NCBI GenBank assembly: GCA_964016885.1
Contig: OZ024742.1
Coordinates: 156,116,001 to 156,180,000 of the forward strand
Length of the DNA stretch: 64,000 bases
Origin: Eledone cirrhosa
Taxonomy: Eukaryota
Direction: 5' to 3'
The notes under the pieces were generated by a model. The model saw only the letters and a program-made list of their open reading frames with translations, ran no database searches and was not told the DNA's origin. Both the position numbers and the translations under genes were made by a program. How positions within the stretch are numbered: the stretch's first letter is position 1; every line of letters begins with the position of its first letter. Shown here in pieces: positions 1-57,809 of this stretch.

Positions 1-370
1 GTAATTCAGTGAAACTACACACTGATTGGTCGAAATACAGTTTACAGGGCTTTGCATTCTGGAGCCACTTTTCTCTGTATAAAATGTATAAAAGGTAGTA
101 AATTTACCCATCTCATTACAGTTGAAAATTGCAAACTCGACTGTCACCACATATCATGAACCTGAAGATTGCGAAAGCATGAAAGTACTTGTTCAATTAA
201 CACTTAGAAATTAATATTCTATCATACTATTTCATTATAATACCATATTATATATATTTTAAAGGATTGTAAATAAAACGAGTAAATCAGACAAAGTTGT
301 AATTCCTCTTATTAATATAATCTTCTATACACAATCATACACACCCGTGTATATTTACCTATCTATATCT
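1..370 (+). mobile_element. 3' non-coding end (pLTR) of PLE family A, cut by window start
   Basis: Near-identical to 9405-9780, which follows the GIY-YIG ORF ending at 9185; carries a hammerhead motif; runs into (TA)n. Confidence 0.8.
157..195 (+). ncRNA. Minimal type I hammerhead ribozyme, family A
   Basis: TGAAC-CTGAAGA-tTGC gaaa GCAt-GAAA-GTAC-TT-GTTCA: stem I TGAAC/GTTCA, palindromic stem III. Confidence 0.75.
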
Positions 371-1010
371 ATACATATATATATATATACATATACACAC
401 ACATATATATACATATATATATATATATATATATATATATACAAACATATATATACATACATATACATACATACATACATTCATATACATACACACATAT
501 ACATACATATATATATATATATATATATATATATATATATATATATATATATATATATATATATACATACCTATATATATATATACATACTTACACATAA
601 ACATATATATATACATAGATACGTACATATATATATATATATATATATACATACATATATATATATATATATATATACATACATACATACATATATACAT
701 TTATATATATATACATACATATATATATATATATATATATATATATACATTCACATATATATATATATATACATACATACATACTTATATATGTACACAT
801 GTACATATATATATATACATAATATACATACATATACATATACATATACATACATATATATACACATATATATACATACATATATATATACGTACATATA
901 CACATATATATATACATATACATACATATACATATACGTATACATAGAAACATATATATATATATACATACATATATATATATATATATATATACATATA
1001 TATGTATAAA
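360..1010. repeat. Degenerate (TA)n/(TACA)n microsatellite
   Basis: Direct reading. Confidence 0.95.
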
Positions 1011-1027
1011 CACACCTGTAAGTGAAC

Positions 1028-4000
1028 AGTATAAGCTCGTGCACCCACGCACCCATGTCCATACACACACCCCACCCACCCACGCATATATATATATATA
1101 TATACACATACATACGTATCTACACGCACACACACGCACATATACCCACACGTATGTCCACATTTAAACAAAACTCGTGAACCTAAACACAATATGATAA
1201 TAAAATAAAACACGTAAATAAATTTACAATATTTTAGGGTACATTAAATCTGTATGTAACTGTATAAATAGGTACAGGAAACGAAGGGGTAAAATAAAGG
1301 AACGGGTAAAATAAAATAAAAAAAATAAAAAATAATAATTTTAGATAGTATTAATTTAGATAGTATTAACGCCACGGCAAACAATATAGTGACGGGGCTA
1401 GAACTAGAAGATAGGACCGAGGTATATGTACCTAGAGGTTCACGTATATCTATTAAGGACCACAAATTATACTTTAAAACTAAACTACCGGTTAGGTTAA
1501 TAGCACCCTTCAAATCCGACCTAGGAAAGACCAGTAAGAATATTATAGATAGGATAATACCGATACTTAGAAACAAAACTAAGCTTAGTCTCTGGACCTC
1601 CACCAAGGAGCTAATTGACTGGTTCTCAGCAATAGATGACAAACACCAAGTAAACTTTATCCAGCTAGACATAGATGGCTATTACGCGACGGTATCTCCG
1701 ATACTAGTCAATGAGGCTCTGATAAGCGCCATGGCCAGATCTAGCCTCACTGGGGTCGAGACCAATCTCATAGTAGCAGCCAGAAAGAGGCTAATTAGTT
1801 TCGAAGACAAGTTATGGGAGAGGAGGGACAGACCCGACAGTTTCGATATCACCATGGGGTCAAGTGACTCGGCACAGGTGACCGACCTGGTGGGGATATA
1901 TCTCATACATAGGCTGACGGAGGAGATCCCGGGGATCGGAGGTGGAATATACAGAGACGACGCACTTTTCACCTTCCGTTCCCTTAAGCCCAGTCAGATG
2001 TAGCGCATGAGGAACCGCATATCGTATTTCTTTAAACAATACGGCTTATCCGTGACAATCGACACTAGCACTAAGACGGTCAATTTCCTGGATGTTACCT
2101 TAGAAATGAATACGGACATCCACAGACCGTACTATAAGCCCAACGTAAACCTGCAATATGTGAACAGGCAATCGAATCACCCTAAGTCAGTCATAGAAGC
2201 AATAGTTAAAGGGGTGTCTAAACGCGTATCCACCCTGTCGTCGAACGCAGAATTGTTTAAACAGCACGCCGAATATTATAATGAGGCACTGCACAGGGCC
2301 GCTTACAAAGACGCCATAAAGTAGAGCCTAATGATATGGCGTGCGGAAATGCCAATAGTGAGGGCGCCTCCCTAGGTAGAAGAATTGACCCGGTAGCAGT
2401 AGCCAGGAACACAAATAACAACACTACTAACTTTAATGACACAGGACCTACCAGAGATAGGACTAAGGCCCCCCATGGGAGCCATACCACCCAGTGTGCG
2501 GAGGCATAGGCCTGGCACGCACACTGCATACTCCGTGTCAACTGGGACCTTGGACAGGACTTCGACAAATAAAAACGGGGCACACACCACGGAGCACGAA
2601 CAGCCTAGTTCTAGTGCCACAGCACCGACGATAGCATCACATAGACCAAGGGGAATAGACGAATAGATGACCACATAGAACGACGTAACTCTATAACTGT
2701 AGAACATAACCACGACGAACTTAGCAGGCAAATAGACAAGGACAACAATGGAGGTGGGGCAGAGCACTGGACCGACACCGAGCCCTAGACACAACAACAT
2801 AAATCCACGCACACGAAGGAACAGATCTAAAGCCGTTACCTGGTTCAATGCGCCTTACTCTAAACATGTACGCACCAACGTGCCAGGAATTTTCTTCCGA
2901 GCGCTGGATGAGTGCTTTCCGACGACAAATAAGTACCACAAAATCTTCAACCGCCACAGGGTGAAATCTTCCTTCTCCAAGGCGCCGAATATGGCCGACT
3001 ACATGGCTAGAACTAACGCGGTGAAGATGGCGCACACTGGCCGTCAACCGCGGCGACAGAGTAACCGGGTTTCGGAGCGCGGAGAACCAACTAGGGACCC
3101 GCCTTCAAATGACAACCCGACCACCGAAGCGACTGGTGCGCCCGCCGAGGGCGATATGGTCCAACACCGGGAGGGAAATGGTGGCACGGGGGTGGGACAC
3201 AAATGTGTCGGCGGTGCAACACACCGAGAACCCCGAGAGGGCCATAACAGATCGGGGCCGGGACATCGGACGCACAATAAATGACAACAGAACTTGCAAC
3301 TGTAGAGCGGGTACCCAGTGCCCCCTACAGGGAAAATGCTTAATAAAAGACTTAGTATACAAGTGTGTGGTTACAACCCAGAATGCACATCGAACCTACA
3401 TCGGAGCAACATCCACGACCTTTAAATCGCGGATGTATTATAACACGAATTCCTTCAGGGATCGTAGCAAAAGGCACTCCACAAGATTAGCGGACCTCGT
3501 GTGGGACATGAAAGACCACGGCGTCTCATACGCCCTGGAATGGAGTATCGTTCTCTGCGCGCGTGCATTTTCGGCCGGAAATAGTGCCGACTGTGCTTAC
3601 ACGAGGCCACGGAGATAGTCAGACTGAAGGATGACGCCGTCAACCTGAAGTCTGAAATTATTATGACATGCAGACACCAGAGAAGATGCACTTTTGCAGC
3701 AATGGAATCCGCCGGGTGACGCAGCCAGGGTGCAAGAGCATGAGAACGTACAGACCCGATTGGCCTAGCGGGATTAGGGGACCTGACGCCATACCATGAT
3801 GACGACGTCCGACCCGCGGGGCAATCATATGTAGACCGGGTGCGCACGTGACCGGGCACGCAACATTGGAAGATGCACCGCATGGGCTGGGCCTGGCTGA
3901 CACAAGGCCCACTGCCGCCTGGACCTGAGCACTAAACGTTTAGAACAGCACCCAAGACAAGGTGCCATGCCACATGGCGACCGTGGCGGGCGTCACCTTG

Positions 4001-4623
4001 AATGTGTACACCGTCAATCGCGACTATATACTCTACACCTGTTCCACTTTGGAAAAATGATTGTTAATATTGTTGTATAATTGTTTTGTTACTGTTACCT
4101 GTTCTATACACGGACACGAGCTTGCATCTCATAATGCCTGCGTAATATGTCACATGGACGCACGCACCTTCTCCCATACCTCCATCCCGTTTTTTTTTCG
4201 ATTTTTCTTTTTTTTCTTTTTTTTTCTTTTTTTTTCTTTTTTTTCTTTTTTCTCTTTTTTTTCTTTTTTTTCTTTTTTTTCTTTTTTTTCTTTTTTTTTC
4301 TTTTTTTCTTTTTTTTTCTTTTTTCTTTTTTTCTTTTTTTTCTTTTTTTTTCTATTTTGTTTCTTTTTTTTCTGTTTTACTTTTTTCTTTTTAACTTTTT
4401 TCTTTTTTCTTTTTTTCTTTTTATATATTACCCGTTCCTTTATTTTACCCCTTCGTTTCCTGTACCTATTTATACAGTTACATACAGATTTAATGTACCC
4501 TAAAATATTGTAAATTTATTTACGTATTTTATTTTATTATCATATTGTGTTTAGGTTCACGAGTTTTTTTTTAAGTGTGGGGTGTGTGTATGGGCATGGG
4601 TGCGTGGGTGCACGAGCTTATAC
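1028..4623 (+). mobile_element. 5'-truncated Penelope-like retroelement (Naiad-like) with inverted terminal arms
   Basis: 1165-1315 is the reverse complement of ~4425-4572, and 1028-1075 of 4575-4623; encloses RT and GIY-YIG remnants; T-rich tract at 4190-4425. Confidence 0.8.
1389..3719 (+). pseudogene. Disrupted PLE reverse transcriptase plus C-terminal GIY-YIG endonuclease
   Basis: QLDIDGYY, ITMGSSDSAQVTDLVG, IYRDD, VNFLDVTL, SNHP, WFNAPYS; CNCxxxxxCPLQGKC, VY..YIG; after a frameshift CRLCLHE..NLKSE..CRH ending in TGA at 3717-3719; TAG at 2001 and several frameshifts. Confidence 0.88.
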
Positions 4624-57296: not shown

Positions 57297-57528
57297 CTAA
57301 AGGAATAAGGGTGGGGAGTTCAGGCTGGGGGGAGTGTGGGTCTGTAAGATGAAGATAGTTCGTTGTTCGACCGTAAAGCGATGGGCGGGTGTTCCGTGGC
57401 ACTGGAGTAGGCCACAGACTGTGAGATGGCGTGGGGAGTGTCCAGGGCCACCAAAGTGGCGGGCGATGGGGAAACTGCCCCCGAGACGAATATCCCGGAG
57501 GTGTTCCGTGACTCGGTCCGCCAGAGTT
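57297..57528 (-). pseudogene. Neptune-type GIY-YIG C-terminus (not in the ORF track)
   Basis: TLADRVTEHLRDIR..PIARHF..GHS..LTVCGLLQC..RFTVEQRTIFILQTHTPPSLN. Confidence 0.8.
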
Positions 57529-57533
57529 CCATG

Positions 57534-57604
57534 TATTTTATTATGCGCATTTCAAAAACAAATATCATCATGTAATAACATTTGTGTTTTCATCAGATAA
57601 AATA
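57534..57604 (-). ncRNA. Hammerhead family I
   Basis: Reverse complement of 57739-57809. Confidence 0.85.
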
Positions 57605-57738
57605 GGAAGATATGATATGAAGTTTAAAAAACACTTGTGGATAGTGCAGTTTTAAATAAACAGAGAGTGCAGTTTTAAATCAAGATATTAAAAATGCAGT
57701 ATCCACAAGTGTTTTTTAGCCTTCATATCATATCTTCC

Positions 57739-57809
57739 TATTTTATCTGATGAAAACACAAATGTTATTACATGATTATATTTGTTTTTGAAATGCGCAT
57801 AATAAAATA
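57739..57809 (+). ncRNA. Hammerhead family I
   Basis: TATTTTAT-CTGATGA-AAAcACAAAT..ATTTGTTTTt-GAAA-TGCGCA-TA-ATAAAATA; 8-bp stem I, palindromic stem III. Confidence 0.87.

Follow-up and report, generated by a model that had tools for sequence, protein, structure and literature searches.

Type I hammerhead motifs at the ends of Penelope-like elements and of three non-coding tandem repeats in a 64-kb window of the Eledone cirrhosa genome

Minimal type I hammerhead ribozymes of animals have been described from the pseudo-long terminal repeats (pLTRs) of Penelope-like elements (PLEs; Cervera & de la Pena 2014, PMC4209133), which include the Neptune and Hydra elements (Craig et al. 2021, PMC8557442), and from non-coding retrozymes lacking long terminal repeats, for which PLEs are the likely movers (Cervera & de la Pena 2020, PMC7229834; Li et al. 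2026 preprint, bioRxiv 10.64898/2026.07.22.740005). The present analysis concerns a stretch of 64,000 nucleotides (nt) from Eledone cirrhosa (assembly GCA_964016885.1, contig OZ024742.1, positions 156,116,001 to 156,180,000), called the window hereafter, and the hammerhead motifs scattered among its TA tracts. These motifs shared with the pLTR hammerheads of PMC4209133 the type I fold, in which helix III is short and palindromic, an additional base between positions 9 and 10.1 (here in families D and I), the presence of many families in one genome, the single motifs left by truncated copies and the opposite-strand pairs 100–700 bp apart. They differed in the G10.1-C11.1 pair, highly conserved there and present in 17/79 motifs sampled here, in their many 6–8-nt palindromes and in number, with ~240,000 motifs estimated for this genome against ~2,000–9,000 minimal motifs per genome there, the descriptors not being the same. 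The hammerheads lie at the 3' ends of eight protein-coding PLE families and of three non-coding repeats; the latter are probably copied by the same PLE proteins into (TA)n, and the motifs are predicted to cut slowly as dimers through stem III. All are of known kinds, at an unusual scale, and about half of the motifs in the window belong to ends of PLEs and not to non-autonomous RNAs.

The window has a GC content of 31%, with (TA)6 or longer tracts occupying 11% of its length, and contains 44 CUGANGA words. The original prediction had listed 29 hammerhead sites with full type I architecture in about ten families. When each site was re-examined, all 29 motifs were present where they had been placed, while the full architecture was seen in 18 of them and the remaining 11 were damaged or minimal: a deletion in stem II (core 7472), C3G (10048), a stem I mismatch (11308), C3U (20705), mutations of both stems I and II (11841 and 42794), U16 to A (16741), a broken core (13093), a broken stem I (31003 and 38926) and a minimal motif with a 2-bp stem I in its whole family (55893). 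The family count was slightly low: eleven families were distinguished, with the motifs at 14999 and 26835 belonging to two different ones, and a decayed copy on the minus strand at 5639–5740, overlooked in the list of 29, represents a twelfth (family K). Fifteen of the 29 motifs belong to eight protein-coding PLE families and 14 to the non-coding families B, C and G; with tandem and inverted duplicates merged, the 29 motifs correspond by hand count to ~16 insertions.

A tolerant type I descriptor (CUGANGA, stem II of at least 3 bp, GAAA, stem III, UH and stem I of at least 4 bp), which permitted one non-canonical first stem II pair or one extra base after A9 and required only one stem III pair, was passed by 17/29 motifs against a mean of 0.02 (maximum 1) in 100 local dinucleotide shuffles, and with stem I relaxed to at least 3 bp by 18 motifs against 0.04; numbers similar to the observed ones were thus not obtained from shuffled sequence. 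A strict type I descriptor was passed by only four motifs in the window and Rfam at its gathering score reported no hammerhead there, because stem II mostly opens with U.U or C.A or an extra base follows A9; ranking of the Rfam output by E-value was swamped by microRNA models matching the TA repeats. The empty Rfam result and the tolerance of the descriptor could be taken to mean that the motifs are chance matches in AT-rich repetitive DNA, but this is refuted by the shuffle control and opposed by the conservation across families and by the covariation of the stems, and it retains practically no probability. The motifs are type I hammerhead folds with the core and three helices, open at stem I.

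The connection to PLE proteins proposed in the original prediction was supported: a reverse transcriptase (RT) with a C-terminal GIY-YIG endonuclease was found upstream of the hammerhead in families A, D, E, F, F', H, I and J. The prediction had taken the motif carriers for non-autonomous RNAs, which holds for B, C and G only, while 8/11 families (15/29 motifs) proved to be ends of protein-coding PLEs. Family A forms a tandem unit of 4211 bp with frames of 476 and 775 amino acids (aa), RT and GIY-YIG domains, GKG/DKG and CX4CxxC motifs and one hammerhead per unit; its named protein relatives are bivalve (50–60% identity), and the full 775-aa frame was present at 98–99% identity in ~65/150 scored matches (hand count). 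Its own endonuclease stood upstream of the hammerhead in 22/26 matches, and that of family D (4057-bp unit, 1186-aa frame, CX4CxxC linker) stood 200–320 nt upstream in 23/44 matches, both sets including loci found by protein search. An endonuclease with the Hydra-type CxCX5C linker, read in all five families, precedes the hammerheads of E, F, F', H and J. Family H has a 4.67-kb unit with DKT and CxCX5C motifs, DKT being read in this family only; family E connects, at locus L274 and with other insertions lying in between, to the family that includes the broken element at 1329–3717; and family I terminates a PLE that carries RT and a CX4CxxC linker (locus L261), three of its four examined loci being heavily truncated. 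Tandem units forming pLTR-like copies were found in A, D, F' and H. Judged by linker motif and (TA)n targets, E, F, F', H and J are classed as Hydra-clade PLEs, while A and I appear Neptune-like on their motifs; the linker is CX2-5CxxC in A, D and I, with DKG in A and DKS in D, and the placement of D is uncertain, as it may be of the Nematis type.

The coding families resemble the Neptune and Hydra PLEs of PMC8557442 in the C-terminal GIY-YIG, in the linkers (CX2-5CxxC in A, D and I and CxCX5C in E, F, F', H and J), in the (TA)n targets, in the tandem and inverted 5'-truncated copies with a tail at one end and in the location of the hammerheads near the 3' end. The supplement of the same paper lists a TA-targeting Hydra-clade PLE of Octopus bimaculoides. 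On the other hand, the tails are ~55–120 nt here against 30–40 there, the Hydra-type units are 3.8–4.7 kb long with a 3' untranslated region (UTR) of at least 1 kb against generally less than 3 kb, and the Hydra-type families contribute the largest share of the sampled hammerheads.

A genome sample of 99 stretches of 10 kb was taken at round coordinates of chromosome-scale contigs (assembly size 2,996 Mb); 57 of the 99 bins fell on contigs C1–C4, which hold 54% of the bases, the window itself being on C3. The predicted TA targeting was borne out: 92% of the 79 descriptor matches in these bins had a TA tract at most 300 nt downstream, compared to 24% of the control positions. TA-flanked copies stopped at one of two fixed points lying 43–231 nt beyond the cleavage site on its 3' side (farther in B), namely at 171 or 231 nt in D, 43–46 or 133 in J, 53 or 152 in H, ~50 or 150 in F, 54–64 or 132–136 in C and 74 or 188–196 in G, and in B at 46–65 or 108–117 nt measured from the end of the internal TA tract. 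TA-flanked inverted pairs of the non-coding families combined a short with a long arm in every case (B 16/16, C 7/7, G 2/2; 25/25 together), and the same rule was followed by the coding families (D 13/14, J 9/9, H 2/2, F 3/3; 27/28), with a fifteenth D row left out as two separate insertions joined. Typical PLEs have an inverted 5'-truncated arm and a 30–40-bp tail at one end (PMC8557442); of the results obtained here, the adherence of the non-coding B, C and G to this one-arm tail rule speaks most strongly for their movement by PLE proteins. A report of the tail rule in retrozymes was not found in the partial literature library searched. An element of family A is itself inserted into the TA tract of a B unit (8709–9783).

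The three non-coding families are built of tandem units that carry a single type I hammerhead and measure 451–473 nt plus an internal (TA)n of 50–82 nt in B, 1289 nt in C and 541–543 nt in G, with a GC content of 0.33–0.39 and longest stop-free frames of 90, 125 and 86 aa, respectively. PLE frames were found upstream of G in 0/82 matches, an own frame of C in 0/27 rows and an own PLE frame of B in none of 94 matches, the five B matches that do carry frames having received them from insertions of other families. A weak tblastn alignment between B and the thumb region of PLEs (E 6.6e-4, the best of 129 related queries) was rejected, since it overlaps simple sequence and a stop. B, C and G are nevertheless likely copied by PLE proteins into (TA)n microsatellites. 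They might instead be satellites derived from solo PLE ends and spread at the DNA level by unequal exchange or DNA rolling circle, for which speak a G array of ~180 kb on contig C28 (8800795–8982178; loci L220, L221 and L271) with head-to-tail units and mostly intact hammerheads, the local tandem amplification allowed for in bioRxiv 10.64898/2026.07.22.740005 and the lack of any sequence link to a coding partner (blastn of B, C and G against the eight coding units found no shared sequence). Such an origin would hardly account for dispersed copies on many chromosomes that are 5'-truncated, TA-flanked and limited to two fixed end sites, nor for the one-arm tail in 25/25 inverted pairs, and we consider it quite improbable for the families as a whole. 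The C28 array as such is a ribozyme satellite.

Compared to the animal non-LTR retrozymes (PMC7229834 and the 2026 preprint), B, C and G are likewise non-coding and low in GC, have a single type I hammerhead in every tandem unit and range from dispersed monomers to long arrays, and B resembles the axolotl HHR_Amex2 in the U.U at the base of helix II and in the short helix III. Their units are longer (500–545 nt in B and G and 1.29 kb in C against 170–400 nt), B and G falling inside the 51–972 bp range of the preprint and C (1289 nt) outside both ranges; moreover, they have PLE-type hammerheads, strict TA targeting and, in B, the target inside the unit. The signature of PLE integration is visible here in the DNA, while for the retrozymes it was inferred from co-occurrence and pLTR homology; cleavage and circular RNA of B, C and G are predictions. 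The non-autonomous PLEs of Chlamys, e.g. MRC1 (PMC8557442), are also non-coding, have pLTRs and head-to-tail insertions and are moved by PLEs, but they are without canonical hammerheads and share 3' sequence with a coding partner, a likeness that was not found for B, C and G.

Several further properties of B were recorded. The octamer ATGCAAAT occurs at 6849–6856 and in each B unit of the window, as well as at L045:7739 and L126:3876, and was located 88–100 nt upstream of the core in 83/92 B copies, 4/4 copies of B2 and 3/3 of a third related family, against a background of 0.018 per 260 nt; it is possibly a promoter element. A promoter like the small nuclear RNA (snRNA) promoter of newt satellite 2 was not supported for B, since host U1 upstream regions carry the octamer in 1/6 cases and show no likeness to B. 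The host U1 genes themselves (L275–L280) have a common motif near -60 and CCCTTG near -250, the octamer being mostly absent (5/6). The z-score of circular folding was -8.9 for B, mostly due to the TA block (-2.2 without it), and -4.2 for G, which as modelled gives weak support to folded units. Spread of B across species was considered because DNA runs of five coded organisms share about half of its words; two runs from other organisms were examined, of which one gave nothing and the other two low-depth contigs, while one run may stem from the source itself and is not independent, and no claim is made.

The fold is supported by the covariation proposed as a check of the original prediction. In an alignment of ten B-group rows (seven obtained via flank homology and three via the descriptor, including one that belongs to a related family) the stems covaried, with 10/15 pairs altered on both sides, a value reached in 0/500 shuffles and far above slid controls, and stems covary between subfamilies. 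In the G alignment (12 rows) 96% of the cells were paired and three other measures exceeded the shuffles. Copies found by flank alone had kept the core in 29/35 cases in B, 43/46 in G, 25/27 in D, 25/25 in J and 10/13 in C. Stem III was a perfect palindrome in 56/79 sampled motifs and self-complementary without a loop in 67/79, so that the palindromic stem III of the original prediction is usual and fits dimer cleavage; for the stem III self-duplexes the predicted energies lay between -10.5 kcal/mol in J and +1.4 kcal/mol in a variant of D. The Rfam model Hammerhead_1 gave 18 matches among 74 scored candidates, and 6/6 examined were family H; since among those examined the cut-off is reached only by H and G10.1-C11.1 pairs are few, the motifs appear to represent a PLE-type variant and not the canonical type. 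An axolotl motif with U.U at the base of helix II does cleave, and better as a dimer (PMC7229834).

A number of observations weigh against this interpretation. The G pairs changed on both sides are only two (2/6 in stem II, 2/15 overall) and do not exceed the shuffles (281/500), and the two alignments used for covariation comprise no more than 10 and 12 rows, which are related by descent, with 3/10 B rows picked by the descriptor. The G10.1-C11.1 pair is present in only 17/79 sampled motifs, the stem II base being non-canonical in 62/79; single motifs fold weakly (z -2.9 to +1.5), and the stem III self-duplex of D is weak (-1.7 and +1.4 kcal/mol). In published in vitro assays cleavage of PLE hammerheads was poor, also when they were tested as dimers (PMC4209133), and 8/9 Xenopus retrozyme dimers stayed uncut (bioRxiv 10.64898/2026.07.22.740005); self-cleavage and circular RNA stand here as predictions. 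As to mobility, family A has equal ends in three inverted pairs with no short/long asymmetry, one D inverted pair is short/short, families J and F are each tied to a Hydra-clade PLE by a single locus (L119 and L054, respectively), and the blastn comparison gave B, C and G no sequence in common with the coding units.

The proposed mechanism follows the model in PMC4209133. A tandem copy would be transcribed, two hammerheads would pair through stem III and release unit-length RNA, and this RNA would be circularised; the PLE endonuclease would then nick (TA)n, and the RT would begin 45–230 nt 3' of the ribozyme and read across the cleavage site, the internal (TA)n of B supplying, if so, new landing sites. 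As copies in the genome extend across the cleavage site, an RNA that is uncut or re-ligated there must serve as template. Most copies are 5'-truncated, hence the ribozyme region is copied most often and the motif count is high, and since B carries its own TA tract, it would offer new targets and likely causes local pile-ups such as the window.

Catalysis is the weakest step of this mechanism. The elements might move as described with the hammerhead as a nearly silent catalyst, kept as a structure for dimerisation or RT docking or as a passenger, and this would agree with genomic copies spanning the cleavage site, with the non-canonical stem II base in 62/79 motifs, with the low or absent cleavage in published assays and with the Naiad PLEs thriving without hammerheads (PMC8557442). 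It would also agree with family E, whose genomic copies (L232–L238) have an 8-base core CUGA-AA-GA (CUGA-AU-GA in older copies) with an additional base following A6, for which low activity has been reported (PMC3088659); family E spread on to ~92%-identical copies despite this core. Against a silent fold speak the constancy of CUGANGA, GAAA and UH in more than 20 divergent families whose stems vary, and the cleaving axolotl U.U motif (PMC7229834), and we find it unlikely, though deserving more weight than the other alternatives; slow cutting of dimers is preferred.

Within the window the families are arranged as follows.
1..380, plus strand: family A, 3' end of a Neptune-like PLE; hammerhead 157–195, core 162, U.U at the stem II base, stem III GUAC
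1329..3717, plus strand: Hydra-clade PLE with broken RT and GIY-YIG frames and CxCX5C linker; inverted 5' arm near 1000–1335; the family is that of the E end
5639..5740, minus strand: family K, decayed hammerhead, core with G5A
5874..5940, minus strand: family B inverted arm, tail alone, ending in TA
5934..8729, plus strand: family B tandem array, non-coding; cores 6411, 6937, 7472 (damaged), 7973 and 8517
8709..9783, plus strand: family A, 5'-truncated PLE that interrupts a B unit in its internal TA tract; GIY-YIG 8730–9182 (PF01541, E 3.4e-7), 3' UTR, core 9566
9783..10912, plus strand: family B array, continued; cores 10048 (C3G) and 10615; terminates at the short end in TA
11205..11508, plus strand: family C, 3' fragment of the 1.29-kb non-coding unit; core 11308, weakened stem I
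11570..12526, both strands: family D inverted pair; cores 11841 (minus, damaged) and 12321 (plus); 60-nt tail confined to the minus arm
12572..13235, plus strand: family E, 3' end of a Hydra-clade PLE; core 13093, broken
14913..15180, minus strand: family F, 3' end of a Hydra-clade PLE; core 14999
15236..16945, both strands: family D inverted pair; cores 15509 (minus) and 16741 (plus, U16A); GIY-YIG in both arms, 15732–16184 (minus) and 16177–16521 (plus)
20580..20881, minus strand: family C fragment; core 20705 with C3U
26683..28998, minus strand: family F', 5'-truncated Hydra-clade PLE; core 26835, endonuclease remains 28580–28995, long 3' UTR
29356..30628, minus strand: family H, 3' UTR of a Hydra-clade PLE; core 29441
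30754..31067, minus strand: family G, divergent subfamily; core 31003 with a broken stem I
37944..39731, both strands: family G inverted and tandem complex of the 541-nt non-coding unit; cores 38084 (minus), 38629 (minus), 38926 (plus, damaged) and 39469 (plus); stem III CUAAUUAG
42538..43127, both strands: family D inverted pair; cores 42794 (minus, damaged) and 42943 (plus)
55762..57524, minus strand: family I, Neptune-like PLE of which the endonuclease end and the 3' UTR are present; core 55893 of a minimal hammerhead with a 2-bp stem I and CG as stem III
57524..57938, both strands: family J inverted pair, 3' end of a Hydra-clade PLE; cores 57596 (minus) and 57747 (plus); stem III UGCGCA

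Other repeats were recorded as well. Two copies of an RTE-like long interspersed nuclear element (LINE) lie on the minus strand at 43579–47568 and 51240–55344, the latter with an intact 1251-aa frame including AP endonuclease, RT and C-terminal C2H2 fingers, and 3' fragments of CR1/L2-like LINEs at 33372–34623 and 63235–63939 have long TA tracts at both flanks. A protein search with the LINE gave no informative names. An abundant short TA-flanked repeat (13560–13720, 14160–14350 and 30625–30670), which has an internal palindrome around GCCGTCGAAACGGC and often occurs as inverted pairs, is without a CUGANGA core and may be another PLE-type end. The TA-flanked repeat at 19966–20302 contains internal tandem copies, and its fuller form in L016 has a further hammerhead-like motif, which implies more families than the 12 of the window. 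TA-flanked tandem units of ~0.5–0.65 kb without an intact hammerhead core were recorded at 35832–36777, 41285–41902 and 49468–50706. The sole long stretch without TA tracts or mapped repeats is 21650–25816, where a 111-aa frame (23059–23391, minus strand) had no Pfam match.

The window had been described as a hotspot and a TA-targeted nest of ribozyme-bearing non-autonomous RNAs. In the genome sample the descriptor matched 79 times, i.e. 80 per Mb (bootstrap 58–103), with no match in 55/99 bins and 0–1 matches in each of eight runs on the shuffled 990 kb; extrapolation from this 990-kb sample gives a genome total of ~240,000 motifs (170,000–310,000), or one per 12 kb. By homology 110 copies, intact or decayed, were counted in the same bins (111 per Mb), 69 of them from the eight coding families, 25 from B, C, G and B2, and 16 unassigned. 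First-look candidates, of which 40 per family were scored and which are not copy numbers, amounted to 1490 for B, 906 for D, 3049 for G, 1879 for C, 569 for J, 2151 for E, 2469 for H, 959 for I and 2846 for F'. The motif number correlated with TA content across bins (Spearman rho 0.50), from 0.19 motifs per 10 kb in the 31 TA-poor bins to 1.77 in the 22 TA-rich ones.

By descriptor the window has 17 motifs against 5.1 expected from the 99 bins (resampling P 0.001, 3.3 times the mean) and 11.3 expected from the TA-rich bins (P 0.09); by homology it has 30 against 7.1 (P 1e-5, 4.2 times the mean) and 16.6 (P 0.006, 1.8 times), respectively, the homology comparison being biased by queries taken partly from the window and by the choice of the window for its density. 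The 200 kb around it had 14 descriptor matches, which is average for the genome. The term hotspot holds in part, at 3–4 times the genome mean, while the descriptor excess over TA-rich bins is not significant; a special status of the locus was not supported, given 80 motifs per Mb genome-wide and a density in the window of 1.5–1.8 times that of TA-rich bins. A locus-specific ribozyme hotspot with its own function could point to these 3.3- and 4.2-fold excesses over the mean and to the 1.8-fold excess over TA-rich bins by homology (P 0.006), but the descriptor comparison with those bins (P 0.09), other single 10-kb bins reaching 4–6 motifs, the damage to 11/29 motifs, the mixed orientations, the density-based choice and the average flanks make it very improbable. 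The window is an upper-tail patch of a genome-wide pattern, dense but explained.

Tens of thousands of motifs in the 0.4-Gb genome of Schistosoma mansoni could match the density found here. The largest published counts found are 126,247 motifs for the axolotl (28-Gb genome), more than 6,000 for a coral, ~5,000 for a mussel, ~9,000 for Xenopus and, by Rfam, 235 for the giant squid, and in the available part of the repeat annotation of Octopus vulgaris the word "ribozyme" does not occur. No paper on these hammerheads or on a comparable load was found in a partial library of studies with differing descriptors. The estimated count is about twice the largest found in print, that of the axolotl (126,247), with the descriptors differing between the two. 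Since Rfam-based annotation misses nearly all motifs of this kind, the ribozyme counts of invertebrates may be far too low. Tentatively, E. cirrhosa might have the most hammerhead-rich animal genome on record, with several active TA-seeking PLE clades, retrozymes using Penelope proteins, self-reinforcing nests driven by B and abundant self-cut circular RNAs, although this full picture is possible rather than probable. With the young intact family A (98–99% identical copies), several other clades and three non-coding passengers bearing the same scar, this genome allows cleavage, circularisation and trans-mobilisation to be compared directly, which bears on two questions raised in the literature, the role of the hammerhead for PLEs and the borrowing of Penelope proteins by animal retrozymes.

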